From the NCBI GenBank assembly GCA_905234535.1, contig CAJOII010000001.1, forward strand, positions 5,148 to 69,147: a DNA stretch of 64,000 bases, written 5' to 3'. Shown in pieces: positions 4,739 through 64,000 of this stretch (position 1 is the first letter of the stretch; each line of letters opens with the position of its first letter). The position numbers and the translations under genes are program-made. The notes beneath the pieces were generated by a model. That model had not been told where the DNA came from. It was given only the letters and a program-made list of their open reading frames with translations, and made no database searches. Source of the DNA: an uncultured Ruminococcus sp. GTDB lineage: Bacteria; Bacillota; Clostridia; Oscillospirales; Acutalibacteraceae.

Positions 4739-5938
4739 TTATCCTTTTTTCAAGACTTGGGCTTCGATCCCGCCGTCTGAGAGGGTGACGGAGATCATAT
4801 CGCCGATCCCGACATCTTCAGATGACAAGAGTACCCTGTGATCCTTCTCAACATAAGCGTAGCCGCGCTTTAATGTCGAGAGGGGGTTCAGCGCCTCGGC
4901 TTTTGAGAGCAGCTCGATATAATGCTTGCGGGCAAGCTCGATGTTCTTGTGCTCAAGGAGCTTCATCCGAGCAGCGATATCGTCGAGCTTACTCAGCCGA
5001 TACCTCGCCTTCTGCGTCGGAGAATAAGCGTCGGTCAGCTTCATGTATCGGGAGAGCGCCTCTCCTTTTCGGCGAAATTTCGCGTCCATCAGCGATGAGA
5101 GATACTGTCTCGTGCCGCTTAAACTGTCTCTGAGCTCTTTCTGATCGGGTACCGCGAGCTCCGCAGCAGCGGAGGGAGTAGGCGCCCTGAGATCCGAGAC
5201 AAAGTCACAGATCGTAAAATCCGTCTCATGCCCCACAGCGGAGATCACCGGCACCTCACAGCTATAGATTGCTCTCGCGAGCCCCTCGTCGTTGAACGCC
5301 CAGAGATCCTCGATTGAGCCGCCGCCTCTGCCGATGATCACGACATCGGCGCACTTCGATTGGGAAAAGGTGTTGATCGCTCTGATCAGTCCCTCGGGAG
5401 CGGATTCTCCCTGCACGAGCACGGGATAGAGCACCATCTTCGCGTACGGATATCTGCGCGTCAATATGTTGATGATATCCTGCACCGCTGCGCCTGTCGG
5501 CGAGGTGATGATGCCGACAGCGGTCGGGAATCTCGGAATCGGCTTCTTGTGAGACGCAGAGAACAAGCCCTCTTTCTCTAATTTTGCCTTGAGCTGTTCG
5601 AGCTGAATGGTCAAGGCGCCGACGCCGTCGGGCTGCATATCCTCGACATACAGCTGATACTGCCCCGTCGGCTCATAGAGACTCACCCGCGCCCTGACGA
5701 TCACCTTCATCCCGCTCTGAGGATGAAACCGAAGGCGTTTCGCGAACGAGGAGAACATCACCGCCGAGACGACGCTCCTCTGATCCTTCAAAGAGAAGTA
5801 GATATGCCCGCTCGCGTAGTGATCCTTGAGGTTCGAGATCTCGCCCTCCACCAGCACGGTCTTGAGGTTGTCGTCGTTCTCAAAGATGGATTTGATATAA
5901 AAATTCAGTTGTGATACGGTTATAATTTTCGGAATCAT
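4739..5938 (-). CDS. xseA: Exodeoxyribonuclease VII large subunit
   Basis: 399 aa; N-terminal OB-fold region and IGRGGGSIEDLWAFNDE motif characteristic of XseA. Confidence 0.9.
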   Translation of the reverse strand: MIPKIITVSQLNFYIKSIFENDDNLKTVLVEGEISNLKDHYASGHIYFSLKDQRSVVSAVMFSSFAKRLRFHPQSGMKVIVRARVSLYEPTGQYQLYVEDMQPDGVGALTIQLEQLKAKLEKEGLFSASHKKPIPRFPTAVGIITSPTGAAVQDIINILTRRYPYAKMVLYPVLVQGESAPEGLIRAINTFSQSKCADVVIIGRGGGSIEDLWAFNDEGLARAIYSCEVPVISAVGHETDFTICDFVSDLRAPTPSAAAELAVPDQKELRDSLSGTRQYLSSLMDAKFRRKGEALSRYMKLTDAYSPTQKARYRLSKLDDIAARMKLLEHKNIELARKHYIELLSKAEALNPLSTLKRGYAYVEKDHRVLLSSEDVGIGDMISVTLSDGGIEAQVLKKG

Positions 5939-6108
5939 TTATCAGTTCTCTGTTCTCAGTTCTCAGTTGTCAGCTGTAGGGCAAGATGCCCGCGACTTAC
6001 CGCAAGGCCTCCTGCGCCTTTGCGCCCTACAATATAATTGTCCGAGCGCAGCGAGTATCCGTCACTCTTAGCTCTTAGCTCTTAACTCTTCACTCAAATA
6101 TATATCAT
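5939..6108. repeat. Mosaic intergenic repeat, modules Q-P-C-D-E (archetype copy)
   Basis: CAGTTNT heptamer array, GTAGGGC...GCCCTAC hairpin, ATTGTCCGAGCGCAGCGAGT, CTCTTAG heptamer array, TCATT-rich tail; same modules recur at >=9 other gaps. Confidence 0.85.
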
Positions 6109-7044
6109 TTATCTTTTCACATTCCCGATCGCCGAGAGCACCGCGATCCCCGCGGCGTTGTCGGATGAGAACTCAGGCTTTGAGAAGAAACAGCAGAAGC
6201 GTTCTTCCATCTCCTGACGGATGATCTTGTCCGACATCACCCCGCCCGCGAACACGAGCGGCGTATCGGGATATTTTTCGGTGATCTTTTCTGTCATCAT
6301 AGAAAGGGTACAGAGTACATACTCGATCGCATAGCGCGCGATATAGGCGTCGTCTCTGCCCTCGTCCTTTAATTTCTTGCACAGGTTCTCGCCGCCCGAG
6401 AGGCAGCAGTCAAAGCCTTTGAGGGTAGGTCTTGTCTTGATCTTCTCATCACATAACAGCGCGAGCCGCTCAAGCTCCCTGCCGCACGGAAAGGACAGCC
6501 CCAGCATCACCCCGACACGATCGATCAGCTGACCCGCGTTCAGGTCAAGCGTCCTCGCGATCGGCTCGGTCGAGAGAAATTCGTCGCGGCCGTTGACGAG
6601 GAGCGCCTCGGTCGTGCCGCCGCTGATATGAAAGGCGATATGGCGCTTGTCGATCAGATCAAGTCTGCCGATATTGTACAGAGCCGCCGCGATATGCCCC
6701 TGCTGATGAGAGAAACGATAAAGCGGAACCTTCAAAGCGGCAGAGAGCATCTCTGCCGCAGAGACCCCTACGGTAAAGCACGGCATATAAGATCCCTCCG
6801 CTGTCCTCGGCGCAGAAGACACGCCGATCGCGTCAATCTTACCCTGAAACCCATCGAACGCTTCTTTGATCAATATAGGTAGCTGCTGTGTGTGATGAAA
6901 GACCGCGTCGCTCTGTCTGAGGCCCTTCTCCCCTTTTCTGACGGGAAGGAGCCTTCGGACAGAGATCACTTCATTCGATTGATCATCATAGATACACACC
7001 GAAGTGGTGTAGTTCGAGGTATCGATCCCTAAGGTACAGCTCAT
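6109..7044 (-). CDS. Kae1/TsaD-family (peptidase M22/glycoprotease-like) protein
   Basis: 311 aa; GIDTSNYTTS N-terminus and HQQGHI (HxxGH) metal-binding-like motif; ASKHA fold pattern. Confidence 0.7.
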   Translation of the reverse strand: MSCTLGIDTSNYTTSVCIYDDQSNEVISVRRLLPVRKGEKGLRQSDAVFHHTQQLPILIKEAFDGFQGKIDAIGVSSAPRTAEGSYMPCFTVGVSAAEMLSAALKVPLYRFSHQQGHIAAALYNIGRLDLIDKRHIAFHISGGTTEALLVNGRDEFLSTEPIARTLDLNAGQLIDRVGVMLGLSFPCGRELERLALLCDEKIKTRPTLKGFDCCLSGGENLCKKLKDEGRDDAYIARYAIEYVLCTLSMMTEKITEKYPDTPLVFAGGVMSDKIIRQEMEERFCCFFSKPEFSSDNAAGIAVLSAIGNVKR

Positions 7045-9882: not shown

Positions 9883-10476
9883 ATGAAAAAGGCCCATACC
9901 TACATCGCGCTCCCCGAAGGGTACCGCGAATACTTTCATGTCAATCTGCAAAAGGACAGGAAGACTGCCTTGTTCGTCAATATCACAGCGCTCGTCGTCG
10001 GGATATTGATGTTCGCGCTCGGACACTTCGCATTTGTTTCGATCACAGATCTGTATGACATGGACGACGGGCTGCTGATCTACTTTGGCAGGATCATCGC
10101 GCTGCTCTTAGGATTCGTCATCTATATCGTACTTCACGAGCTGACCCACGCTGCAGTGATGAAGTTCTTCGGCGCGAAGAAGCTCAGGTTCGGCTACACG
10201 GGGATCTATGCCTACGCAGGCAGCGAAACCGACTTCTTCGACAAGCACGCGTACATTCCCATTTCTCTGGCGCCGCTGATTGTATGGGGAATCATCTTCA
10301 CCGTGCTGCTGATCGTTGTGCCGCGATCGTGGTTCTGGGTAGTCTATTTCTGGCAGATCGGAAACATCACGGGCGCGATGGGCGATCTCTATGTCACCTT
10401 CAAATTCTCCCCTATGCCGAAGGATATCTTGATCAGGGATACCGGAACCGAAATGACGATCTACTCCAAAGCATAA
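9883..10476 (+). CDS. DUF3267-like membrane protein with HExxH motif (putative zincin peptidase)
   Basis: Start moved to ATG 9883 behind AAAGGAG RBS; multiple TM segments; HELTHA motif. Confidence 0.65.
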   Translation: MKKAHTYIALPEGYREYFHVNLQKDRKTALFVNITALVVGILMFALGHFAFVSITDLYDMDDGLLIYFGRIIALLLGFVIYIVLHELTHAAVMKFFGAKKLRFGYTGIYAYAGSETDFFDKHAYIPISLAPLIVWGIIFTVLLIVVPRSWFWVVYFWQIGNITGAMGDLYVTFKFSPMPKDILIRDTGTEMTIYSKA

Positions 10477-10477
10477 A

Positions 10478-10511
10478 GAAAGGCTGTCAATTGATTTGAC
10501 AGCCTTTTTTA
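10478..10511 (+). terminator. Intrinsic terminator
   Basis: AAAGGCTGTCAA-TTGA-TTTGACAGCCTTT hairpin followed by TTTTAT. Confidence 0.7.
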
Positions 10512-10808
10512 TGAAGAGATAAGAAGTAAGAGCGAAGAGCGACGGTCACTCGCTTCGCTCGGACAATTGAAGTTACAATGATTGTCATTATCTAATAGAA
10601 AATCCGGATTATATATGTAGGGAAGGCGCCCTCGACTTGCCGAAAGTTTTCTATCAGAAGCCTTTTTCCCAAGCAAATCTCTGTAAAACGAATATACCGC
10701 GCAATCTTTGCTTCGCAAGAAAAAGAGAATTGACCACAGTGTATCGGCAAGTCGTGGGCGCCTTGCCCTACAGCTGTGAACCGACAACTGCGAACTGACA
10801 ACTAACGA
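10512..10808. repeat. Mosaic intergenic repeat (rcD-rcC, then P arm / ~100 nt / inverted P arm, rcQ)
   Basis: Same modules as 5939-6108 in reverse complement; 27-nt inverted P arms at 10617-10643 and 10744-10771. Confidence 0.85.
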
Positions 10809-18638: not shown

Positions 18639-20876
18639 TTATTCAGCCTCGGTCTCTTCTGCGGGAGCAACTTCCTCAGCGGGAGCTTCTTCAACAGGAG
18701 CTTCCTCTGCGGGAGTCTCTTCAACAGGAGCTTCCTCAGCGGGAGCCTCTTCAACAGGAGCTTCCTCTGCGGGAGTCTCTTCAACAGGAGCTTCTTCAGC
18801 AGGAGCCTCTTCTACGGGAGCTTCTTCAACAGGGGCGGGCTCTTCAGCGGGGATCTCGTCCTCGAGGTCTACGACGGGCTTCTCTTCGGGTTCTGCGACA
18901 GCAACGACCTCATCCTCGGTCGCTTCGACAGCAGCCGGCTGAGCCTCGGGCAGCAACGCGCGGATAGAGAGGCTGACTCTCTTCTTATCAAAGTCGATCG
19001 CGATGATCTTCGCCTCGACCTCGTCGCCTACCTTGAGCTCGTCAGAAGGCTTCTCGATCCTCTTGTTGGAGATCTGAGAGATGTGAATCAGACCGTCGAT
19101 GCCGGGGATGATGTTCGCAAACGCGCCGAACGCGGTGAGGCCAACGACCTTCGCCTTGACAACGGTGCCAACGGGATACTGACGCTCTAAGATCAGCCAC
19201 GGGTTGTCCTCGGTCTTCTTGTAGCCTAAGGAGATCTTCTTGGTCTCGGGGTTGATGTCCTTGATATATACTTCTACGGTATCGCCAACATTGACGACTT
19301 CAGACGGATGCTTGATCCGAAGCCAACTAAGCTCAGAGATGTGGATCATACCCGAAACGCCGCCGAGATCGACGAACGCGCCGTAAGAGGTGAGGGTTCT
19401 GACGGTGCCGGTATAAACCTTGCCGACCTCGCAGTTCTCCCAGAACTCTGCTCTCTGCTTCGAGAACTCGTCGCGGAGAACGGACTTGATGGAACCGATG
19501 ATCTTTCTTCTTCTGCCGCGCTGAGAGAACTCGATCAGTCTGAACTGTACTTCCTGACCCTTGAGCGCTGTCAGATCAGCGTCTCTCTCCATGGTAGCCT
19601 GAGAAGCGGGGATGAATACGCGGATATCGTTCGCGACGACGATCACGCCGCCGTTGACGATCTCGGTAACAACACCGGTGAGGACAGCCTTCTCTTCATA
19701 CGCCTTCTCGAGCTCTTCGAAGCCCTTCTGAGAATCGACTCTGCGTTTGGAGAGCATAATGGTGCCTTCGACATCGTTGGTCTTCATGATCAGAAGCTCC
19801 ACTCTGTCGCCGATCTTAACCACTTCATCAGCGGAAGAAATAGGAGTAGCGGACAACTCATCCAGCGGGATGAACCCGGTCTGTTTTCTGCCGTCAACTT
19901 CAACATACACTTCGTTCGGAGTGATGCTCGCAACAGTACCCATGACCCTTTCGTTAGTATTTAAGCTCTTCAAGGACTCCTCTAACATAGCCTCGAAGTT
20001 TTCGTTTTCATTTGCGCTGGATGTGATATTCTCATTCATTGTATCCAGTACCTCCTTTATTATCCTGTCAGGCGTCGAAGCGCCCGCTGTAACGCCGACG
20101 CGTTTAGCAGAAGAGAGCTGTGAGAGATCGAGATCCTTCGCTGTTTCGATGTGGATGGTGTTTCTGCAGTTCCTCTTACAAATCGAGACGAGCTTATTTG
20201 TGTTGGAACTGTATCGGTCACCGATCACAATCATACAGTCGGACTCTTTCGACAGCACCGCCGCTTCGGCCTGGCGCATTGACGTAGCATTACATATTGT
20301 ATCAAATATTTTTGCGTTTGTATATACTTTTTTGAGAATTTTTAAACATTTTTTCCAAATTTCTTCATCAAATGTGGTCTGAGCCACTACACAAACACCA
20401 TTATAATTCTCAAAAGGAATTATTTTTAGAATTTCTTCAAGCTCTGCTTCGTTGCGGAATGCATAATAATCCGTTTTCGCAGAGCTCAGGATCCCCTGTA
20501 CCTCGGGATGATCCTTGTCGCCCGCGATCAGGATCAGGCTGCCTTTCTCGCTCTCTTTCAGCACGATGCGCTGGATCTTTGAGACAAAGGGACAGGTAGC
20601 GTCGATGTACCTGATCCCGAGATCGTTGAGCTCTTGATACACATCGCGCGTCACCCCGTGGGAGCGGATGATTACCGGAGAGAATCCCTTCGCTTCTTCG
20701 ACGCTGTCGACGGAGACGACGCCGCGATCAGAAAGCTCCCTGACCATCTCCTTGTTATGGATGATCGGGCCTAAGGTACAGCCCTTCTCCCCTTTATCGG
20801 CGGTATCGAAGGCGATCTTCACCGCGCGGCTGACGCCAAAGCAGAAGCCCGCCGTGGACGCGACCTTAATCTCCAT
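18639..20876 (-). CDS. ispH: Bifunctional 4-hydroxy-3-methylbut-2-enyl diphosphate reductase / ribosomal protein S1 fusion
   Basis: 745 aa; N-terminal IspH ([11 protein letters not shown]), then four S1 OB repeats, then acidic xP(V/A)EE tail. Confidence 0.9.
18648..18850. repeat. In-frame tandem repeat (15/30/60-nt period) encoding ~14 xP(V/A)EE pentapeptides
   Basis: Near-identical 30-nt and 60-nt units visible directly in the sequence lines 18661-18840. Confidence 0.9.
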
Positions 20877-21477: not shown

Positions 21478-22142
21478 ATATGTTCCCTCATTATCGTCAG
21501 TAATCGGTTGACCGATGTGTCGAGATCCTCCCCTGAGGTATCGACCATCACGGCGTCATCGGCGGGCTTTAAAGGCGCGATCGCGCGGTGGGAATCAGCG
21601 TAGTCGCGATCGATCACATCCTTCAAAACATCGTCGTATCTGACATCCATCCCCTTCTCGACGAGCTCGTCATAGCGGCGCTTCGCCCTGCACTCGGGAG
21701 ACGCGAACAAGAAAATCTTGAGCTTCGCGTCGGGAAGAACGACGGTTCCGATATCTCTGCCGTCCATGATCACATTCTTAGTGTGCGCCATATCGCGCTG
21801 CAGATCGAGCAAAAACGCCCTCACCTCGGGGATCGCCGACACTGCGGACGCCATCATCGAGATCTCGGGCGTGCGGATAAGGCCGGAGACATCCTCGCCG
21901 TTTAAGAGGACGATCTGCGCACCGCTCTCGTTGAAGGAAAGCTCAACCCTGATCTCGGGCAAGAGGGCGATCACCGCCTGTGTATCGGCAGCTTTCACGC
22001 CCTTTCGGTGCGCATAAAGCCCGATCGCCCTGTAAAGCGCTCCGGTATCGACATAGATGAAGCCGAGCTCCTTTGCCGCTAACTTCGCTATCGTGGATTT
22101 TCCCGCGCCGGCGGGACCGTCAATCGCAATCGATATAGACAT
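21474..22142 (-). CDS. cmk: Cytidylate kinase
   Basis: 222 aa; IAIDGPAGAGKST P-loop; conserved cmk-plsC-S1 neighbourhood. Confidence 0.95.
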   Translation of the reverse strand: MSISIAIDGPAGAGKSTIAKLAAKELGFIYVDTGALYRAIGLYAHRKGVKAADTQAVIALLPEIRVELSFNESGAQIVLLNGEDVSGLIRTPEISMMASAVSAIPEVRAFLLDLQRDMAHTKNVIMDGRDIGTVVLPDAKLKIFLFASPECRAKRRYDELVEKGMDVRYDDVLKDVIDRDYADSHRAIAPLKPADDAVMVDTSGEDLDTSVNRLLTIMREHI

Positions 22143-22299
22143 GATGATCTCCTTTATAATGATGAATGATAAATATTTGAGTGAAGAGCTGAGAATGGCG
22201 GTTACTCGCTTCGCTCGGACAATTCTATTAACTACATCCTACAACTCAGAACTGAGAACTGACAACTGACAACTAAGAACTGACAGCTGCCGGCTGTCC
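22143..22299. repeat. Mosaic intergenic repeat (E-D-C-Q in reverse complement)
   Basis: aatgatgaatgata, gagtgaagagctgag, actcgcttcgctcggacaat, (AACTGAN)n array. Confidence 0.85.
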
Positions 22300-25902: not shown

Positions 25903-26045
25903 CGGGTGGCTTCCTCAGTTGTCAGTTATCAGATGTCAGTTCTGAATTGTAGGGAGTAGTCAAAAGATTTGTCCGAGCGAAGCGAGTAACCGCCGCTCTT
26001 CACTCTTAGCTCTTAGCTCTTCACTTGAATATCTATCATTCATTC
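25903..26045. repeat. Mosaic intergenic repeat (Q-P remnant-C-D-E)
   Basis: cagttgtcagttatcag, attgtaggg, tttgtccgagcgaagcgagt, cactcttagctcttagctcttcac, atcattcatt. Confidence 0.85.
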
Positions 26046-26080
26046 TAAAAAATCGGCTGCCGCAAGATACAGCGGCAGCC
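26046..26080 (-). terminator. Intrinsic terminator after the pseudokinase gene
   Basis: GGCTGCCGC-loop-GCGGCAGCC hairpin followed by GATTTTTT on the minus strand. Confidence 0.75.
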
Positions 26081-27722: not shown

Positions 27723-27945
27723 ATTATATTCCCCCTAAGTTGCATAGTACTACATATTACAGCTCATTATAACATACCCCGCCGCCCTAAAGCAAGAAAA
27801 TTCAGGAAAAACAGGTTACAGTTTTGCAATCAATTTTATTCTGTATCAGAAATATAAGATCGAACATAATACAGCTGATATTCAGTTTTCAGTATTCATT
27901 TAGAAAATCCTGTCAGCAGGACTGAAAAATGAAGAATATAAACGC

Positions 27946-27975: not shown

Positions 27976-28322
27976 TTCGCTTATGGAGACGGACGGGAGT
28001 TCTCTCTTTCGGTCAAAGCCTGCCCCGTATTCGGAGCGTCACCTCCTGTCTTAGGTCGCGCCTACGCTCTCCCTAAAAACAGTCCGCCGGACTGTTTTTG
28101 TCATCGGATTTCAGCGACCTTGCACAAATCGGGATCCCCGAAAAGCCCCTGCTTTTTGGGGAGAGGAGAAACGGCGGCGCGAGCACGAGATCGGCAAACC
28201 CTTGCCGTTCTCAGCAAGCACAGCTCGTGACGACGACACGGTCGCTTCGATCTCGTCCCTCTCCATTTTATTTCGGAATGAATTAAGGGATACCCGAAGG
28301 TACCCCTTAATATTTGTATGGA
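27976..28322 (-). ncRNA. Candidate structured non-coding RNA / tRNA-3'-end-bracketed segment of unknown class
   Basis: No credible ORF; lies between tRNA-Ala and a strong terminator; ends can pair (11 bp); UUCG hairpin 28283-28310; nested hairpins throughout. Confidence 0.3.
28075..28099. terminator. Perfect 11-bp palindromic hairpin flanked by A5/T5 (bidirectional terminator-like)
   Basis: AAAAACAGTCC-GCC-GGACTGTTTTT. Confidence 0.45.
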
Positions 28323-28395
<73 letters not shown>

Positions 28396-28589: not shown

Positions 28590-28705
28590 TCGGCACCTCC
28601 CCTTAGGCAGGGGAGGCTTTGCACCCTACAATATAATTGTCCGAGCGCAGTGAGTATCCTTCACTCTTCACTCACATATTTATCATCTATTATTCATCAT
28701 TAAAA
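28590..28705. repeat. Mosaic intergenic repeat (GC hairpin, P remnant-C-D-E)
   Basis: 28618-28662 is ~90% identical to 6018-6062 (tttgc.ccctacaatataattgtccgagcgcag.gagtatcc). Confidence 0.85.
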
Positions 28706-30850: not shown

Positions 30851-31337
30851 AGAGAGCGAGAGAGAAGCCGAGTGAGGGGTGATTCTTCTCTTTTTATTCT
30901 TGATTATTTTTTCTTTCTCTTTGTTTTTCTCTTACTCTTTGTATTTGTCTTTCTCTTCTTCTTTTTCTTTCTCTTTTTCTTTCTCTTTTTCTTTCTCTTG
31001 CCTTGTTTCGGTTGATTTCGGTTGATTTCGGTTGACAGTTGTCAGTTGTCATTGCGAAGCCCTTTAGGGCTGTGGCAATCCCCTTCTTCTTAATACCGTC
31101 TGAATAGAGATTCTCTTATCAACCGGTAGTGATGACAGGGGAATTCCCACGGTCGCTTCGCTCCCTCAGAATGACAAATGAAATGATCACAAATCAGTTG
31201 AAGACAACGCCTTCCCGCAATTCCTATTTCCTCATTCCTAATTTCTCATTAAAATTCGGGTGAGGGCGAAGCCCTCCCACCGTTCTTATCTCTTAGCTCT
31301 TAGTTCTTAGCTAATAAAGCTCTTAGTTCTTCACTAA
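30851..31337. repeat. Expanded composite repeat region (polypurine/polypyrimidine tract, 12-mer x3, 10-mer x3, modules Q, G, F, D)
   Basis: ctttttctttct x3 at 30961-30996; tttcggttga x3 at 31005-31034; later caattcctatttcctcattcctaatt, gggtgagggcgaagccctcc, tcttagctcttag arrays. Confidence 0.85.
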
Positions 31338-31363
31338 CAAAAAAGGCTGTCTTTCGACAGCCT
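31338..31363 (-). terminator. Intrinsic terminator after yloV-like gene
   Basis: AGGCTGTC-GAAA-GACAGCCT hairpin followed by TTTTTTG on the minus strand. Confidence 0.75.
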
Positions 31364-31368
31364 CTCTC

Positions 31369-39189: not shown

Positions 39190-39253
39190 CAAATTCAGGT
39201 GAGGATGAAGTTCTCCCGCGATTATTCATTATTCATCATTCATTTTTCATTAA
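39190..39253. repeat. Mosaic intergenic repeat (F-E)
   Basis: ttcaggtgaggatgaagttctccc then attattcattattcatcattcatttttcatt. Confidence 0.75.
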
Positions 39254-40628: not shown

Positions 40629-40698
40629 GTAATATTCTTTTGAACAGAGTATACACAGTATAATACAGAGAACGGAAAATGTCAAGAGAGGCATATTT

Positions 40699-40728
40699 AG
40701 TTTTCAGTTGTCAGTTCTCAGTTCTCGG
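40699..40728. repeat. Mosaic repeat module Q abutting the stop codon of the NTase gene
   Basis: ttttcagttgtcagttctcagttctcgg; 19-mer identical to 41528-41546. Confidence 0.8.
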
Positions 40729-41505
40729 TTAAAGGATCGCCTGAAGATCATGAAGAATCAGCGTCAGGTCATCCCTGACGCGATCAGGAGAAGCGCTGAG
40801 GTCATGAAGAAGCGATGTGACATTCTCTTCGAGTTGATCGGGCAGGATCGCGCAGTTTCTGACGGCATACTCGATCATCCGCTTCTCGCCCGGGTGGGTC
40901 AGGCGGTTGACCGCGAAGATCAGATCAAAGTAAGTCTCCAAAAACGCGGCGGCGCGGTGGTTGACGGAAACAAGGTCTCCCCTCTCTGATGCTTTGATGA
41001 TCTGGCGGTCATAGGACGGAAGATGCCCTGAGAGCAGCTTCAGGTGATTCTCGATGATATTCTGACGAAGCGCCTCGGGATACGGCACATCAAAGCGCTC
41101 TTTCAGCGCGGAGAGCGCCCCGTCGCGGTCGTAGAGGATCTTGGAATGGAGCAGATTGTGCCACATACAGGTGGTGTAGGCGTTATAGGTATGACACTGT
41201 TCCACGACATCGATGAGCCCCCGCTCAAAGTCCTCAAGAGAGCGGTAGAGGATGTCGATATCCACGCCGTCTTTGAAGGTGCAGTCGTCCTCAAGCTCCC
41301 AGAAACGGTTAGAGATCTCCATATAGGTGCAGTGCCGCTCGAGGATGCTTCGCCTGGTTTTTTCGTCAGGGACACGGTCGCAGTAGAGATAGAGGTCGTA
41401 GTCCGACTTCTCGTCGAAGGATCCTCCGGCGCGGGATCCGCCCAGCGCGATCGCGCGGATCTCAGGAAGTGCGGAGAAATCTTTCACTAAATTTTCAAAA
41501 TACAT
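40729..41505 (-). CDS. Nucleotidyltransferase-domain protein (MNT fold plus DUF4037-like helical C-terminus)
   Basis: 258 aa; GGSRAGG...SDYDLYLY NTase signature. Confidence 0.7.
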   Translation of the reverse strand: MYFENLVKDFSALPEIRAIALGGSRAGGSFDEKSDYDLYLYCDRVPDEKTRRSILERHCTYMEISNRFWELEDDCTFKDGVDIDILYRSLEDFERGLIDVVEQCHTYNAYTTCMWHNLLHSKILYDRDGALSALKERFDVPYPEALRQNIIENHLKLLSGHLPSYDRQIIKASERGDLVSVNHRAAAFLETYFDLIFAVNRLTHPGEKRMIEYAVRNCAILPDQLEENVTSLLHDLSASPDRVRDDLTLILHDLQAIL

Positions 41506-41835
41506 ATGATCACCTTCCGTAATATTACAGTTGTCAGTTCTCAGTTTTCAGCTGTAGGGCAAGGCGCCCTACAATTCTATGCTACGCCCTATTGATCAGG
41601 TGAGGGCAGAGCCCTCCTACCGTTCTTAGCTCTTATTTCTTAATTCTTAGCTCAAAAATCAGGTGAGGACGAAGTCCTCCAACAATTCCTATCTCCTCAT
41701 TCCTAATTCCTCGTTAGTGCAACTTTTCAGTCCCCTGCTGCGGCAAGTCGTGGCGCCTTGCCCTACATTTTATTATTCGGGTGCGGGTGTCCCGCCCACA
41801 ACTCTTCACTCTTCCCTCTTACCTCTTCACTAAAA
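41506..41835. repeat. Composite mosaic repeat (Q-P-F-D-F-G-inverted P-F'-D)
   Basis: Three GGTGAGG..CCTCC-type hairpin modules, two heptamer arrays, split P arms; last module overlaps stop codon of the amylase gene. Confidence 0.85.
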
Positions 41836-46805: not shown

Positions 46806-46826
46806 TTTAAAAAATCAGACATCAGA

Positions 46827-46864
46827 AAAGGACGAGGCGTAACGCTTCGTCCTTTTTGTTTTGC
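46827..46864 (+). terminator. Intrinsic terminator after the ABC operon
   Basis: AAAGGACGAGGCG-TAA-CGCTTCGTCCTTT hairpin followed by TTGTTTTG. Confidence 0.75.
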
Positions 46865-46950
46865 CACTCTCATTCGGTTTTCAGTTGTCATCACTGACTA
46901 TAGGGCAAGGCGCCCACCCGCAACATTTCATCTTTCATATTTCACAGAAT
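46865..46950. repeat. Mosaic intergenic repeat (Q-P-E-like)
   Basis: ttttcagttgtcatcactgac, tatagggcaaggcgccc, atttcatctttcatatttcac. Confidence 0.75.
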
Positions 46951-61200: not shown

Positions 61201-62058
61201 TTAAATAATATTCGCGCCGGATTCGATGTTGACGGAGCCGCAGCTGCCATCATCACCGGCTCCTATACTATGATTGCCGCTGGTGTGGATTGTGCCGCCG
61301 GTGATATTGATGTTGCCGCAACTGCCTTCAAAACCGGTTCCGATACCGGCACCTCCCCACACGCCGGAGGCGTTTACGGTACCGCCGGTGATAGTGATGT
61401 TGCCGCACCCGCCACAGAATCCGCTTCCGATACCGGCGCCATAATCACCGCCGTTAGCCGTAACAGTGCCGCCGTTGATGGTGATGTCGCCGCAACTGCC
61501 GCTGTCACCGGTTCCGATACCGGCGCCACAACCACCGCCGTTAGCCGTAACAGTGCCGCCGCTGATAGTGATGCCGCCGCAACTGCCTAATTCACCGCAT
61601 CCGATACCGGCGCCATACTCACCGCCGTTAGCTGTAACAGTGCCGCCGTTGATGGTGATGCTGCCGCAACCGGCTTCATTACTGCCTCCGATACCGGCGC
61701 TGCCATCGCTGCCGGTGGCAGTGATTGTGCCACCGTTGATGACGATATTACCTACTGCACCAATTCCATATCCGCCGCCGATGCCGCAGGCATTGCCGTT
61801 GGACGAAGCGTCGAGCGAGCCGGTGCCGTCGATAGTGAGGGTTTTGTTACCGGGAACATAAATGCCCGGATTATCACCGCCGCCCCTGACGGTGTTCGTA
61901 CCCTCTAAGAGGATGGTCGCGTCGCCCAAGGGAGTGATGCCGGCTTTGCCGTCCATGCAGGTAATATTCGCGTCTTTGAGGGTAACAGTCGCGCCGTCGG
62001 CAATAGAGATTTTGTAGTTGCCTTGGAGCGTGCCGAGGATGATGGTGCCGTCATTCAC
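61201..62058 (-). CDS. Gly/Cys-rich protein of six ~29-aa repeats (predicted beta-helix-like), probably 5'-truncated
   Basis: Repeat ITI.GGTVTANGG.YGAGIG.G..GSCG.; GTG start with GAGGAG RBS but frame stays open 20 codons further upstream to the AT-rich junction; no signal peptide. Confidence 0.55.
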   Translation of the reverse strand: MNDGTIILGTLQGNYKISIADGATVTLKDANITCMDGKAGITPLGDATILLEGTNTVRGGGDNPGIYVPGNKTLTIDGTGSLDASSNGNACGIGGGYGIGAVGNIVINGGTITATGSDGSAGIGGSNEAGCGSITINGGTVTANGGEYGAGIGCGELGSCGGITISGGTVTANGGGCGAGIGTGDSGSCGDITINGGTVTANGGDYGAGIGSGFCGGCGNITITGGTVNASGVWGGAGIGTGFEGSCGNINITGGTIHTSGNHSIGAGDDGSCGSVNIESGANII

Positions 62059-62273
62059 GACAGTCTCCTCGGTTACATTGTCAAGGATGTAAAAATATGT
62101 AATATAACCATCAATTGACTAAAAGCCAAGCAAATAAAACAAACAGTTACCAAAATTTATTGTTTTCACACTAAAAGTTTCAAAATTTTAATTTCTTAAA
62201 AGAAAGTCAAGAGAATTGATGAAAATTATTTTATACTTATTACAATTTTCTAATATTTTTAAACATATTTCAA

Positions 62274-62305
62274 GAGGGTGTTCCAGAATGGAACACTCTA
62301 TTTTC
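62274..62305 (+). terminator. Terminator-like hairpin in AT-rich segment
   Basis: GTGTTCCA-GAA-TGGAACAC followed by TCTATTTTC. Confidence 0.4.
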
Positions 62306-62599
62306 ATTATTAACGCCTTCTTCCTATCTCAGCAGAGTTATTATTCACATAAAGAATATTAGGAGTCACAAGTTATGTTTATGAGGACTTTATCTGTCCA
62401 TTAATAAAATTCTGCACATAGACAAACTTGACCTCAGCCGTAGTTTAGCCGCATTTGAAAAAGTCTTTGAAATGGCAGCAGAGAGGAAAGAATACTGTTG
62501 AAAGGCTCTAAAAAGTGTTTGATTCCCTTAATTATGGAATATCGAGATCAAATGATGTAGAATCGACCCGGGAAAAGTAACAGACTTTTGAAATATTTC

Positions 62600-62628
62600 G
62601 TGACTTTTCAAGGGTGAGATGTTATACT
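62600..62628 (+). promoter_or_regulatory. Candidate promoter upstream of the tRNA-Trp fragment
   Basis: GTGACT - 17 nt - TATACT, ~64 nt upstream of tRNA position 1. Confidence 0.35.
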
Positions 62629-62691
62629 ATTTCTCGCATGAAAGAGGGCGCCGCACATCAGCGCGACACCCGATCTCACAACCAAATATTT

Positions 62692-62729
62692 AGGGGTATA
62701 GCTCAGTTGGTAGAGCAGCGGTCTCCAAA
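62692..62729 (+). pseudogene. 5' half of tRNA-Trp (CCA), truncated after the anticodon loop
   Basis: AGGGGTA-TA-GCTC-AGTTGGTA-GAGC-A-GCGGT-CTCCAAA then CTTTC instead of the expected ACCGC; no T arm or acceptor 3' strand downstream. Confidence 0.7.
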
Positions 62730-62740
62730 CTTTCAAAAGT

Positions 62741-62763
62741 GACTTCGTATGAAGTCTTTTTTT
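62741..62763 (+). terminator. Intrinsic terminator 11 nt after the tRNA break point
   Basis: GACTTC-GTAT-GAAGTC followed by TTTTTTT. Confidence 0.6.
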
Positions 62764-62970
62764 ATGCTCAAAATCCGAAAAAGCGGCTTAAACACTGACT
62801 ACTTGTGTAATAAGCACATAGGCAATTATCAGCAGAGAAAGAATGATTTTTGATCAAAAATCCGAAAGATTTTGAACAAAAAATCCTGAAAGCAGTATAA
62901 TAGCATCATTTGAGTAGTACCGCTGAAAAACTACCAAAAAATCATTGCAAAAACCACTCTGAAAAGGTAT

Positions 62971-63012
62971 GAAAAATCACCGCCGAATCAATCAATATCA
63001 GCGGTGATTTCT
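62971..63012. terminator. Bidirectional terminator-like hairpin downstream of the permease gene
   Basis: ATCACCGC-17 nt loop-GCGGTGAT flanked by A5 and TTCTTTAT. Confidence 0.4.
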
Positions 63013-63062
63013 TTATACTCGCACAGTCTTTTGCTCTTCAAAACTGTGCCGTTTTTTTATTG

Positions 63063-63752
63063 TCAGGATGTTTGCAGATGGGTGTTATACGCCTTTGTCT
63101 TTTTCTCAAGTAATCGCAGGATCGTATCCGCGACGAGGGCGATGATCACGCACAGGATCGTACCCCATATGATCTTATAGGTATTCATCGTACGCAGTCC
63201 CGAGAGCAATATCTTTCCCAACCCTCCTGCGTTGATGGTCGCTGCTATCGTGGCGATTCCGGTGGTGGAGATGATCGCGAGTCTTATACCGGCGATAATT
63301 GACGGCATAGCGAGCGGGAGCTGTACTCGGGTGACAAGCTGCCACTTACTCATGCCCATACCTGTACCGGCTTCGAGGATACTTTTGTCCACATTCTGCA
63401 TACCGGTCATAAAGTTGCGGATCAAAAGGTACTGGTTATACAGAACAAGGACAGGAATAGCAGTCTTGTTGCCGAGTCCCAAAAGCGGTATCAACAGCGC
63501 GAATAAAGCAAGCGACGGGATGGAATAAACCTCGCTGAAAAAGTTGACGACGATGTTCGTCGCTCTCTCCGACTTCAGCAGGAACCAACAGATGATCGCC
63601 GCGAGCGCAATCGAGATCAACAGAGTCGAGAACACGATTCCGAGGTGCTCGAGAAATGCCTCCATCAGCTTCACCGCGCCGAACGCGTCTGTCTGTAAAA
63701 GGTCTTTTCCGCGTGAGCCCGCGAGGAAATAGACAGCGTCCATATCTTTCAT
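63063..63752 (-). CDS. ABC transporter permease, OpuCB/ProW-like (osmoprotectant type)
   Basis: C-terminal 229 aa of the 309-aa ORF from internal MKDMDAVYFL; 5-6 TM, EAGTGMGMSKWQLVTRVQLP EAA-type loop. Confidence 0.75.
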   Translation of the reverse strand: MKDMDAVYFLAGSRGKDLLQTDAFGAVKLMEAFLEHLGIVFSTLLISIALAAIICWFLLKSERATNIVVNFFSEVYSIPSLALFALLIPLLGLGNKTAIPVLVLYNQYLLIRNFMTGMQNVDKSILEAGTGMGMSKWQLVTRVQLPLAMPSIIAGIRLAIISTTGIATIAATINAGGLGKILLSGLRTMNTYKIIWGTILCVIIALVADTILRLLEKKTKAYNTHLQTS

Positions 63753-64000
63753 ATGACTTGTACCGCTTTCACCGACCACGAAGCACCCGCACTTACCGCA
63801 GAACAGCTTCGTGGTGAGCAGATATTCGTCCTCTGCCTTGTGTTTGGCAGGGGCTTTCTTTGTCTGCGCCATACGCTCCTGTACACGCTCAAACAGTTCC
63901 TCGCTCACGATTGCGGGAATTACATTCGGGTACACGACATCGGCATACCGATACTCACCGATGTATTTGCGGTTGTGAAGCATTCTGGTCACGCTGTTGA
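63753..64000 (-). pseudogene. Internal fragment of a large serine recombinase (recombinase domain to start of zinc ribbon), running off the right edge
   Basis: ...NSVTRMLHNRKYIGEYRY...EELFERVQE...LFCGKCGCFVVGESGTSH then abrupt switch to permease sequence in the same frame. Confidence 0.7.

Follow-up and report, generated by a model that had tools for sequence, protein, structure and literature searches.

The 64,000-nucleotide stretch of DNA from an uncultured Ruminococcus sp. analysed here (the window) carries at least 11 loci that are probably copies of a lineage-amplified, non-coding mosaic repeat working at the level of DNA, a Clostridia counterpart of the REP/BIME elements. The original prediction had likened these loci to BIME/BOX-type mosaics, and the likeness is supported: the modules recur in variable order, copy number and orientation, they are extragenic and include REP-type stem-loops, and the archetype copy is an insertion relative to three related genomes. 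The best reading of the data is that selfish DNA hairpins and slippage-prone microsatellites are tolerated at the 3′ ends of genes. The copies in the window are assembled from heptamer arrays (Q, D, G), hairpins (P, F), a 19-nt core (C) and tails (E) as follows (rc, reverse complement).

5939..6108, + strand: archetype copy filling the entire tsaD-xseA spacer; Q array 5942-5977 (TCAGTTC x5), P/REP pair 5974-6030 (TGTAGGGCAAGATGCCCGCGACTTACCG ... GCGCCCTACA), the C core at 6038-6056, a D array of CTCTTAG x4.6 at 6062-6095 and, closing the element, an AT-rich tail E at 6096-6108.
10512..10808, - strand: composite with the bidirectional terminator at 10476-10511 on one side and the stop of spoIIIAH on the other; the rc-D array 10512-10540 leads into the rc-C core 10548-10566, then come inverted 27-nt P arms 10619-10646 and 10745-10771 enclosing ~100 nt of unique DNA (GTAG + 6-bp stem at 10746-10771), rc-Q array 10772-10804.
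22143..22299, - strand: Q, degenerate P, C, D and E, filling the spacer between the stop of a flavoprotein gene (22300) and the cmk RBS/start (22142); the sole co-directional copy in the window whose G-poor strand is the transcribed sense strand.
25903..26045, + strand: Q array 25915-25941 and a degenerate GTAGGG ahead of the C core 25969-25987, with a D array 25996-26025 and E tail behind it; in a convergent gap, followed by a terminator hairpin at 26054-26080.
27879..27940, + strand: small copy, absent from the original prediction and with a weak claim to family membership; TATTCAG array of ~3 units beside a short hairpin (TCCTGTCAGCAGGA), partly complementary AAATGAAGAATA on the far side.
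28590..28705, + strand: between tRNA-Ala and the recG stop codon; REP-like hairpin ending CCCTAC, AATATAA, C core 28637-28655, short D array (2 units), TCATT-rich E-type tail.
30851..31337, + strand: large composite with the recG start on one side and the Dak2/FakA terminator (31341-31368) on the other; purine-rich segment 30851-30881, CT-rich period-6/18 array 30882-30999, TTTCGGTTGA x3 at 31006-31035, Q array 31029-31053, hairpin 31057-31075, GTCATTC...GAGCGAAGCGAC module 31152-31175 (-), and lastly a G array 31218-31250, then an F hairpin 31257-31277 and D arrays 31283-31337.
39190..39253, + strand: single hairpin-plus-array unit, TCAGGTGAGGATGAAGTTCTCC followed by an ATTATTC-type array 39220-39251; in a convergent gap flanked by two terminators.
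40696..40731, + strand: isolated Q array of 5 units adjoining the stop codon of the gene at 40729..41505 (-), upstream of the metK SAM-riboswitch region.
41506..41835, + strand: composite with a single-stranded DNA fold of z = -3.5; Q array 41528-41551, then P as a minimal hairpin 41554-41572, a CTAC-tagged F hairpin 41597-41617 leading into a TTCTTAG array 41623-41649, F hairpin 41660-41680 leading into a G array 41683-41712, rc-P arm 41741-41768, hairpin GGGTGCGGGTGTCCCGCCCAC 41779-41799 leading into a CTCTTCA array 41800-41831.
46865..46950, + strand: bounded by a bidirectional terminator (46818-46855) on one side and by the stop of the (-) gene downstream on the other; a short Q-like array 46875-46890 precedes P 46900-46915, after which comes a TTTCAT-type array 46925-46946.

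The F hairpins were also considered as intrinsic terminators, an assignment that was rejected because the stem is not followed by a U-tract.

Array, module-copy and repeat searches confirmed that the named modules recur at the predicted loci. Tandem Repeats Finder reports period-7 arrays at 5942-5973, 6064-6095, 22241-22289, 25915-25941, 25995-26021, 31031-31051, 31219-31250, 31284-31341, 39221-39252, 40699-40730, 41528-41551, 41623-41649, 41685-41712, 41801-41831 and 46925-46944. All 11 strict lag-7 runs are intergenic, while intergenic DNA makes up 11.8% of the window; by simple arithmetic the chance of this is 0.118^11, ~6e-11. No strict runs occur in the window at lags of 4, 5 or 8, and at most two at each of the lags 6, 9, 10 and 11. 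With few mismatches allowed, the window holds five copies of module C (ATTGTCCGAGCGAAGCGAGT; 6037+, 25968+, 28636+, 10548-, 22204-), five of module P (GTAGGGCAAGGCGCCC; 5976+, 41554+, 46900+, 10756-, 41751-), three of F, with variants at 39197 and 41779, and two of G; a repeat search of the window recovers the same families. The 83-nt C-D-E unit is present in three direct copies of 65-100% identity, that of 25903..26045 being 83% identical to the archetype unit, and 22179-22277 matches 25914-26012 in inverted orientation over 99 nt at 83% identity. The archetype order expected in reverse complement at 22143-22299 holds, with P degenerate, and the ~90% identity claimed for about 45 nt at 28614-28658 and 6018-6062 amounts to 41/45. 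Three further pieces were absent from the original set: the small array 27879-27898, the GTCATTCTGAGGGAGCGAAGCGAC hairpin module on the - strand at 31152-31175 and, just beyond the window, a copy of C with an array (L116:17802-17847). The Q and D arrays of this genome are not complementary to each other, and both are G-poor on the same strand.

These observations bear directly on the idea that the loci are chance low-complexity sequence or an artefact of MAG assembly. The window does derive from a metagenome assembly, and short two-copy matches may arise by chance. However, the specificity for period 7 in exclusively intergenic runs, the recurrence of multi-module units of 50-100 nt at 65-100% identity, an independent assembly of the region that is 99.99% identical, and the same grammar in dozens of independent MAGs from different studies mean that such an explanation is effectively refuted.

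The elements are confined to particular kinds of gap. In the window they occupy 4/5 convergent, 6/13 co-directional and 0/5 divergent gaps, and the C-core copies of the window and of 30 Clostridia-type loci lie in 9 convergent, 11 co-directional and no divergent contexts (20 classifiable). Since no divergent gap is occupied, the claim that every copy sits at the 3′ end of at least one gene turned out to be correct. Orientation relative to the gene is not fixed, again as predicted: co-directional C-core copies are sense in 5 cases and antisense in 6 over this combined set, and 1 sense versus 5 antisense among the co-directional copies within the window. Such extragenic, multicopy placement in convergent and co-directional gaps, at no fewer than 11 loci in 64 kb, is that of REPs, and GTAG REPs in particular have been reported to prefer these gaps (Di Nocera 2013, PMC3733652).

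Comparison with relatives shows insertion. The tsaD-xseA gap measures 170 nt here vs. 19, 6 and 9 nt in the related genomes L117, L119 and L122, and blastn homology to these relatives breaks at the ends of the element, stopping at 5938 and restarting at ~6136. The archetype is thus an insertion relative to these genomes, and the proposed comparison of orthologous gaps finds the element absent there; nor are modules present anywhere in their 21-kb syntenic loci. At 5939-6108, the sole insertion whose empty site is clean, no target-site duplication is visible. The Dak2-recG gap spans 621 nt here, 132 nt in L134, where it holds the terminator, an rc-D-type array and a degenerate rc-C, and 67 nt in L138, where it holds the terminator only; in L137 the same gap carries a different array and a GTAG REP. 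No presence/absence polymorphism within one species was seen, the comparisons covering different species or genera. On a shorter time scale, L134 and L136, strains of one relative, are 99.9% identical over 12 kb, and their only internal indels, five units (35 nt) and one unit (7 nt) long, both fall in arrays. The arrays therefore gain and lose whole 7-nt units between near-identical strains.

The family is present across rumen and gut Clostridia MAGs, and its grammar is that of a GC hairpin with a 3-nt loop, or the 19-nt core TTGTCCGAGCGMAGYGAGT, leading into a heptamer array poor in G. On the G-poor strand, the end of a perfect GC hairpin lies within 14 nt upstream of 25/80 arrays vs. 124/1560 control positions, and a hairpin or C-like core lies upstream of 57/80. 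About two thirds of the array-associated hairpins have a 3-nt loop, and the hairpins are often tagged with GTAG or GTGG in the manner of REPs; related genomes carry the forms GTAG+GGGCGATTC-ACG-AATCGCCC and GTAG+GGAGCGATG-ACCA-CATCGCTCC. The arrays are strand-asymmetric, with 9% G on one strand, and their unit varies from locus to locus, widely even within one genome. Units of unrelated genomes share a loose AATTCNY/TTC theme which hints at a common binding constraint, though part of this consensus is built in, as TTC was favoured in choosing the rotation. Elsewhere among Clostridia genomes, both arrays of an element are mutual reverse complements, differ between elements of one genome, and form a stem of ~30 bp around the hairpins; such pairs could reflect selection for a long stem rather than neutral slippage. 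A metagenome scan with the lineage-specific Q/P junction CAGCTGTAGGGCAAGRYGCCC gave nine matches, eight of them in one human-gut coding sequence, which from its reading alone seems to be a hemC-like gene, and the ninth in an unrelated contig of 62% GC. The element is not among them, and the scan thus added no copies from this genome.

The hairpins themselves resemble REPs. According to the structural definition (PMC3733652), a REP carries an unpaired GTAG/GTGG/GTRG tag at one end of a 20-40-nt imperfect palindrome, and this is the structure of P and of several F hairpins: an unpaired GTAG precedes a looped GC stem of 6-9 bp, and the stems vary among loci and genomes. P reads GTAG + GGCAAG-(9-10 nt loop)-CTTGCC at 10746-10771 and 41742-41766, and rc-F reads GTAG + GAGGGC-TCT-GCCCTC at 41602-41620; other F copies end in CCAC. 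The alternation of REPs with recurring linkers that marks a BIME is also found, with inverted P arms at 10619-10646 / 10745-10771 and 41554 / 41741-41768, and with linkers such as AATATAA ahead of C and ATATAATC(A/G)GGTG ahead of F-type hairpins. REPs usually flank the gene of their cognate RAYT (TnpA_REP), a transposase of the Y1 HUH type. A tblastn search with IS608, IS200 and RAYT queries detected no RAYT/Y1 transposase in the window or near any Clostridia copy, the sequence of this genome covered being 64 kb + 5 kb; the single RAYT-like match, in the gammaproteobacterium L080, lies 6 kb from a core and is not core-flanked.

The make-up of the elements, and how they might arise, can be outlined. 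The building blocks are short GC-rich stem-loops with 3-nt loops, many of them GTAG/GTGG-tagged (P, F and variants), the 19-nt core with its GCGNAGC mini-hairpin (C), and a strand-asymmetric, G-poor heptamer microsatellite directly 3′ of the hairpin or core. The elements are insertions into otherwise short spacers and build up where they do no harm, i.e., past stop codons, around terminators and between co-transcribed genes, and never in divergent promoter gaps. We infer that the hairpins extrude in single-stranded DNA and that a trans-acting HUH/Y1 (RAYT-like) enzyme, or recombination between copies, may copy or move them, while the arrays would expand by slipped-strand mispairing beside a stable hairpin. 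Effects on mRNA, such as 3′ stabilisation or altered spacing before a start codon, would be by-products.

The core deserves separate attention. It holds GCGAAGC or GCGCAGC, i.e., a GCGNAGC mini-hairpin; the only variable position within this heptamer (M) is the free N, and the second degenerate position of the core (Y) is situated 3′ of the heptamer. In no fewer than 6 other phyla the identical 19-mer forms the loop of hairpins, with over 30 different stems. In this respect the original view of the modules as an unrecognised family stands only in part: no database match was obtained, but the C 19-mer is not specific to this genome. In 43 core-bearing elements of Proteobacteria and Nitrospirota, aligned with MAFFT, the stems were measured directly; RNAalifold returned no structure for this alignment because the stems are out of register. 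The core is not complementary to rRNA, and no transposase was recognisable, on reading by eye, among the ORF translations between inverted core-bearing elements of Betaproteobacteria. Where core-bearing elements flank genes, a (-)...(+) arrangement was seen in 7/7 cases. The oligonucleotide d(GCGNAGC) is known as an extraordinarily stable DNA mini-hairpin, and its known natural occurrences are at sites where phages and plasmids initiate replication or transcription (PMC13037366). Here it belongs to dispersed chromosomal repeats. The stability of the mini-hairpin fits a single-stranded-DNA role better than an RNA role.

Selfish drift alone fails to account for the invariance of the core across phyla. 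One may suppose instead that the hairpin-plus-heptamer unit and TTGTCCGAGCGMAGYGAGT are cis-sites of an undescribed, widespread machinery, and that the family represents a new class of small mobile or regulatory element, not a REP variant; we regard this as rather improbable. The core, displayed on lineage-specific stems or beside heptamer arrays in at least 7 phyla, could then serve as a recognition tag, read either by a dedicated single-stranded-DNA enzyme or by some conserved protein that binds nucleic acids; the period-7 arrays would provide a multimerisation track, and selection would maintain the matched inverted arms. It is equally unlikely, in our judgement, that the elements act in RNA, with the arrays as multivalent platforms for a protein covering ~7 nt per subunit and the hairpins nucleating or stabilising the complex, which would tune translation, decay or termination. 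Candidate binders would be a cold-shock-domain protein on the T/C-rich strand or a HutP-type ring protein. The latter reads NAG-N4 three times, and D as RNA is (UAGCUCU)n, i.e., UAG-N4. Several arrays end within a few nucleotides of an RBS or start codon (xseA at 5938, cmk at 22142, L016 and L087), a placement that matches the TAACTGA repeats (PMC4679880), and the archetype RNA folds better than shuffled sequence (z = -2.7). The strong strand asymmetry, the TTC/GAA theme across genomes and the ~30 bp stems that enclose hairpins in other genomes would likewise suit an RNA platform. However, orientation relative to transcription is random, so that a single RNA-binding specificity would meet different sequences at different loci, and the units vary widely among loci of one genome in any case. 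The unit at 39190-39253, placed between two convergent terminators, can be expected to see little transcription. Moreover, near-identical strains differ in array length, close relatives lack the element at the same genes, and triloop hairpins are typical for DNA, not RNA.

A role in DNA could also take the form of hairpins acting as single-stranded-DNA signals, for instance sites for primase or single-strand initiation, or promoters in hairpin form like those of phage N4, with the arrays as unstructured landing pads. GCGNAGC and C(GNA)G triloops on 5-6-bp stems have indeed been reported at G4/ssiA priming sites and at promoters of the N4 virion RNA polymerase (PMC13037366), and the G-poor GNA-loop strand is the + strand in 8/10 window copies, where the + strand GC skew is negative throughout. 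Yet the 8/10 bias is not significant, and the GNA-loop strand in the window would be the leading-strand template, which is unexposed at the replication fork. The core is nearly absent from viral contigs (2 matches), and the archetype has no match in the phage collection and, in the plasmid collection, matches two Rhodococcus plasmids only, over 31 nt of its Q array; nothing points to an origin from phages or plasmids. As close relatives also lack the elements and nothing ties them to any replicon, this possibility appears very remote. Mosaic repeats of REP/BIME type, mobilised and diversified as DNA, remain the reading that we favour.

The Rfam search suggested beforehand found no family covering any module: at the gathering threshold the window yields only the SAM riboswitch and tRNA, no module being overlapped at E<=5, and 26 related loci show no overlap with a module either (8 loci searched at E<=5, 18 at the gathering score). 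Sub-threshold look-alikes of C/D-box snoRNAs (sR5 at 22138-22193; SNORD28 in L016) were dismissed because they stem from ATGATGA/CTGA strings in the arrays. A literature search by sequence strings gave no relevant match, and no paper was found that describes the form seen here or reports repeats of this kind from this group of bacteria.

Work on REP/BIME elements has dealt almost wholly with Proteobacteria; a REP-like mosaic family expanded in Clostridia of rumen and gut, and joined to heptamer arrays that are hypervariable, would widen that range and would also offer a natural system for the interplay of stable DNA hairpins and replication slippage. As the arrays shift in 7-nt steps between 99.9%-identical strains, they are ready-made typing markers for uncultured Ruminococcus-like populations; the same instability may cause breaks in MAG assemblies. 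Insertions inside operons (nusB-tsaD-xseA-dnaE) and directly before start codons may alter the expression of housekeeping genes. The invariant 19-mer, in turn, is a conserved non-coding motif across phyla that is now directly testable.

Among known systems, CRISPR arrays combine 24-48-nt repeats with unique spacers of similar size, whereas the units here are 7 nt long, head to tail and spacerless. MITEs share with the family non-coding insertions of 60-500 nt with inverted-repeat ends (27-nt P arms here, inverted heptamer arrays in other genomes) and insertion polymorphism between genomes. Of the terminal inverted repeats and target-site duplication that characterise MITEs, however, only the arms are present, the duplication being absent at 5939-6108; there is no known parent insertion sequence, and the content between the same arms is wholly different at 10619-10771 and 41554-41768. 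The BOX element of Streptococcus pneumoniae consists of boxA, boxB repeated n times and boxC, modules of 45-59 nt in fixed order. It is likewise modular, with a variable copy number of the internal module, intergenic and non-coding in a Gram-positive genome, but it has no sequence similarity to the present elements, whose units are of 7 nt and whose order varies. The heptamer arrays are close to the STRR heptamers of cyanobacteria and also to the TAACTGA direct repeats. The latter, described in Beggiatoaceae, Cyanobacteria and Bacteroidetes (MacGregor 2015, PMC4679880), are similarly short intergenic tandem arrays of 2-6 copies; they were reported next to start codons, which some of the present arrays also abut, with proposed effects on the expression of flanking genes. 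The Q arrays read on the reverse strand as mixtures of GAACTGA, CAACTGA and TAACTGA, matching TAACTGA at 6-7/7 positions. The original statement that the heptamer modules were not recognised as a described family has to be qualified for Q, whose (N)AACTGA agrees with the published repeat at 6/7 positions (PMC4679880). Unlike that repeat, Q is just one of many coexisting units, most arrays of the family using units of other types, and the arrays travel attached to hairpin modules within a mosaic; their orientation is not fixed, whereas the repeats in the Beggiatoaceae genome are mostly forward and upstream of start codons (PMC4679880). The closest parallel is REP/BIME, the "junk" repeats of E. 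coli. REPs and TnpA_REP have been reported mainly from Proteobacteria, Cyanobacteria, Bacteroidetes and others (PMC3733652; Nunvar 2010, PMC2817692), and a survey of GTAG REPs makes no mention of Firmicutes (PMC3733652). The family differs from them in its Clostridia host, in the coupling of hairpins to a heptamer microsatellite and in the extra invariant 19-nt core. It shares with them the GTAG/GTGG tag beside a 6-9-bp GC stem with a short loop, subfamily stems that differ yet stay complementary, the range from singletons through inverted dimers to larger mosaics with linker motifs, the convergent and co-directional placement, and lineage-specific expansion.

The original prediction described intergenic mosaics built from heptamer arrays and GC hairpins, and reading of the sequence at each locus found the modules present as described: heptamer arrays (modules Q, D, E and G), GC hairpins or hairpin arms (P and F) and a 19-nt core with GCGNAGC (C). 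Tandem Repeats Finder detects about 15 period-7 arrays in the window, all at the predicted loci. A mismatch-tolerant scan of the window counted five copies of C, five of P, 3 to 5 of F and two of G; Q and D arrays are numerous, with copies on either strand. Under a strict periodicity criterion (12 or more matching positions out of 14 at the lag tested) and on a rough gene map, 11 of 11 lag-7 runs turned out to be intergenic, with intergenic DNA making up 11.8% of the window; strict runs are absent at lags 4, 5 and 8 and number at most two at lags 6, 9, 10 and 11. A repeat search of the window showed that an 83-nt C-D-E unit recurs at 65-100% identity and that 22179-22277 matches 25914-26012 as a 99-nt inverted copy. 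The D array varies from 2 to 4.6 units between window copies of the C-D-E unit, which is otherwise conserved. Modules C and F align at about 62% (repeat family D4), and C resembles a form of the array-adjacent hairpin reduced to the GCGNAGC mini-hairpin alone. An assembly artefact is excluded because an independent assembly is 99.99% identical over the first 16 kb of the window; it carries a further C-plus-array copy directly outside it (L116:17802-17847).

The module set also has less regular members. An extra hairpin module of the form GTCATTC-TGAGGGAGCGAAGCGAC...GAAT lies at 31152-31175 (-) and is seen in the database loci L005, L018 and L091 as well. The GAGCGAAGCGA centre that it has in common with the C core suggests a wider putative superfamily of TGTC-stem-GAGCGNAGCGA-stem repeats. 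At 30882-31035 a long CT-rich array of TTTCTC type (about 15 units, period 6/18) precedes three copies of TTTCGGTTGA; one composite element holds both, though period 7 is found in neither.

Comparison of orthologous gaps across relatives, a check proposed with the prediction, found that the tsaD-xseA and Dak2/FakA-recG gaps vary in element content. The tsaD-xseA spacing is 170 nt in the window vs. 19, 6 and 9 nt in three relatives of the same gene order. The archetype element (5939-6108) begins directly after the tsaD stop codon and finishes directly before the xseA ATG, while nucleotide homology with the relatives ends at 5938 and picks up again near 6136. No array, C, P or F modules occur in the three relatives' 21-kb syntenic loci, and the tsaD-xseA insertion site shows no target-site duplication. 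The Dak2/FakA-recG gap is 621 nt in the window and holds a large composite; in the related loci it is 132 nt in L134 (a terminator followed by a D-type array and, after that, a degenerate C), contains a different array and a GTAG hairpin in L137, and is reduced in L138 to 67 nt with the terminator alone. Judged by these comparisons, the copies are insertions, the Dak2/FakA-recG site agreeing with tsaD-xseA with more gradation.

The heptamer arrays are unstable and change in 7-nt steps. L134 and L136, loci from separate samples with identical RecG, are 99.9% identical over 12 kb. Setting aside an offset where the contig ends, they differ by just two indels: one array has changed by 35 nt or five units (L134:328-362) and a second by 7 nt or a single unit (L134:12169). 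Uncultured rumen Ruminococcus populations could therefore be typed with the arrays as VNTR-like markers. On the G-poor strand the arrays consist of T 35%, A 30%, C 26% and G 9%, a strong strand asymmetry; most contain TTC, and their loose consensus AATTCNY is partly built in by the rotation chosen.

The genes of the window are Firmicute housekeeping and sporulation genes (pfkA, dnaE, xseA, tsaD, nusB, spoIIIAA-AH, ligA, cmk, recG and metK, the latter with a SAM riboswitch). The nearest database proteins come from rumen and gut MAGs named Ruminococcus sp., with up to 68% identity for XseA and 80% for RecG. Elements occupy 4/5 convergent, 6/13 co-directional and 0/5 divergent gaps. Their orientation relative to transcription is random: in co-directional gaps of the window and the Clostridia-type loci together, 5 C-core copies are sense and 6 antisense, and for the element copies of the window the split is 1 vs. 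5. Three other repeat features were recorded in the window:

27985-27998 and 28324-28337: GGAGACGGACGGGA repeat, the 3' end of tRNA-Ala (28323-28395, minus strand) repeated about 340 nt off
18671-18833: in-frame 15/30/60-nt tandem repeat at the 3' end of the ispH-rpsA fusion gene (18639..20876, minus strand)
61292-61741: 87-nt tandem repeats, 4-5 copies, about 80% identical, inside ORF 61201..62058 (minus strand)

The GGAGACGGACGGGA repeat looks like a possible att-type duplication from an integrated element or its remnant, and 28154-28243, within the DNA it bounds, is 80% identical to L037, a locus of Ruminococcus sp. RGIG2380. Translated, the 18671-18833 repeat gives an acidic, A-, E-, P- and V-rich tail. 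To judge from its repeats, ORF 61201..62058 (-) seems to encode a repetitive protein that is probably secreted or on the surface. GC content falls to 43% at 62001-64000, ORF 63063..63992 (-) looks like a large serine recombinase, and the window end is probably an integrated mobile element.

A scan for the C core with one genome per species matched at least 115 loci, and the matches listed fall into three classes. Those in Myxococcaceae apparently lie in coding sequence (the ORF is unannotated) and are probably unrelated to the element family; in many phyla the 19-mer is the loop of a hairpin; and in rumen and gut Clostridia MAGs named Eubacterium sp., Ruminococcus sp., Oscillospiraceae or Clostridiales, 1-3 GTAG hairpins are followed by the core, AACC, 2-5 nt more and a heptamer array. 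Among the matches listed, 121 occurrences with complete flanks were compared with 2320 control segments. A strict array lies within 60 nt downstream of the core in 18/121 vs. 21/2320, all 18 from genomes of 38-53% GC, and a perfect stem that closes it over 6 bp or more occurs in 41/121 vs. 23/2320, with an array in 0/41. The closest relative lineage among the compared loci, L134-L136, matches Ruminococcus sp. RGIG2380 and has nine arrays in 22 kb, with none in its two divergent gaps.

The grammar was derived from 80 arrays of the window and 25 related loci, oriented to the G-poor strand. A hairpin or C-like core precedes 57 of them, and in 25/80 vs. 124/1560 control positions a GC hairpin with perfect pairing, its loop mostly 3 nt long, lies within 14 nt before the array. 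The consensus is ATATAA-TC(A/G)GGTG(A/C)GGnn-loop-nnCC(T/G)CC, then a short tag, then the array, with stems exchanging A-T for C-G between copies. P and its counterparts elsewhere combine an unpaired GTAG with a 6-9-bp GC stem whose sequence varies by locus, and several F copies finish in CTAC or CCAC, i.e., GTAG/GTGG plus stem-loop on the opposite strand. In other genomes heptamer units differ between elements of one genome, and the composite is flanked by two mutually reverse-complementary arrays, whose predicted stem of about 30 bp encloses the hairpins. In the window's genome the flanking Q and D arrays are unable to pair, since both are G-poor on the same strand.

The 19-mer TTGTCCGAGCGMAGYGAGT (6038-6056 and four other C copies in the window; L001-L115) is not restricted to this genome. 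Among the matches listed it is identical in Beta-/Gammaproteobacteria, Nitrospirota, Bacteroidota, Bacillota, Gastranaerophilales and Gemmatimonadota, where more than 30 different stems carry it as a loop of about 20 nt, usually inside dispersed elements of about 150-250 nt. No known site, ribozyme or rRNA complement could be linked to the core, and no Rfam family covers it. Proteobacterial loci with two core-bearing elements always have them as (-) then (+) (7/7: L001, L019, L021, L031, L075, L097, L099), 0.1 to 4.5 kb apart around unrelated small genes. Those in L019 resemble, from translations alone, a VapBC-like pair and a TIR-like protein; no transposase was recognisable among the ORF translations read between paired elements. 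Spurious ORFs over the core at these loci read LSERSEF.

On balance, we favour a REP/BIME-like, largely selfish mosaic with slippage-driven arrays that acts at the DNA level. This reading is supported by the random orientation relative to transcription, by a copy lying between two convergent terminators, and by relatives that do without the element at the same genes. The element loops, moreover, are triloops that include C(GNA)G and GCGNAGC, the latter an extraordinarily stable DNA mini-hairpin (PMC13037366), and single-stranded DNA folds beat shuffled sequence (z = -3.0 and -3.5), which argues in the same direction. An RNA or protein-binding role at the RNA level seems rather unlikely; consistent with it are arrays that adjoin start codons, as for the TAACTGA repeats (PMC4679880), the composite arms that stay complementary, and the TTC/GAA theme common to the heptamer units. 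That the elements are single-stranded-DNA signals is quite improbable, and chance as the source of the pattern can practically be dismissed. Within the favoured DNA-level reading, a Y1/HUH enzyme would mobilise the elements, purely by analogy with REPs; tblastn with IS608, IS200 and RAYT queries found none in the window or near the Clostridia copies.

A search of Rfam with the window and related loci returned no family matching the modules, and phage and plasmid records gave no match. Weak C/D-box snoRNA matches (sR5, 27 bits, E = 0.034, 22138-22193 (+); SNORD28, 27 bits, L016:2394-2468 in a database locus) are below threshold, are produced by ATGATGA and CTGA strings of TCATT-type arrays, and are probably meaningless. 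The elements are not MITEs, as target duplication is absent. With BOX elements they have the modular logic in common, but not sequence or unit size, and module Q closely resembles the TAACTGA repeats described in Beggiatoaceae, Cyanobacteria and Bacteroidetes (PMC4679880). The predicted BIME/BOX-type mosaic nature is supported, REP/BIME being the closest known family. Three of its defining features are found in the elements and the fourth, a cognate RAYT, is beyond reach here, so that they are termed REP/BIME-like rather than members. The published structural definition of GTAG-tagged REPs, an unpaired GTAG with a GC stem-loop, is the form of P and its counterparts, and REPs have the same preference for convergent and co-directional gaps (PMC3733652). 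Firmicutes are absent from that survey, and the TnpA_REP-type genes of the Y1 survey come from Cyanobacteria, Bacteroidetes and several proteobacterial classes, not Clostridia (PMC2817692); heptamer arrays appear in neither (PMC3733652, PMC2817692). The interest of the elements rests on an undescribed architecture, an instability in 7-nt steps that is seen directly, and an unexplained cross-phylum core. Compared with the known systems, what is new here is REP/BIME-like mosaics in Clostridia, coupled to hypervariable heptamer arrays.
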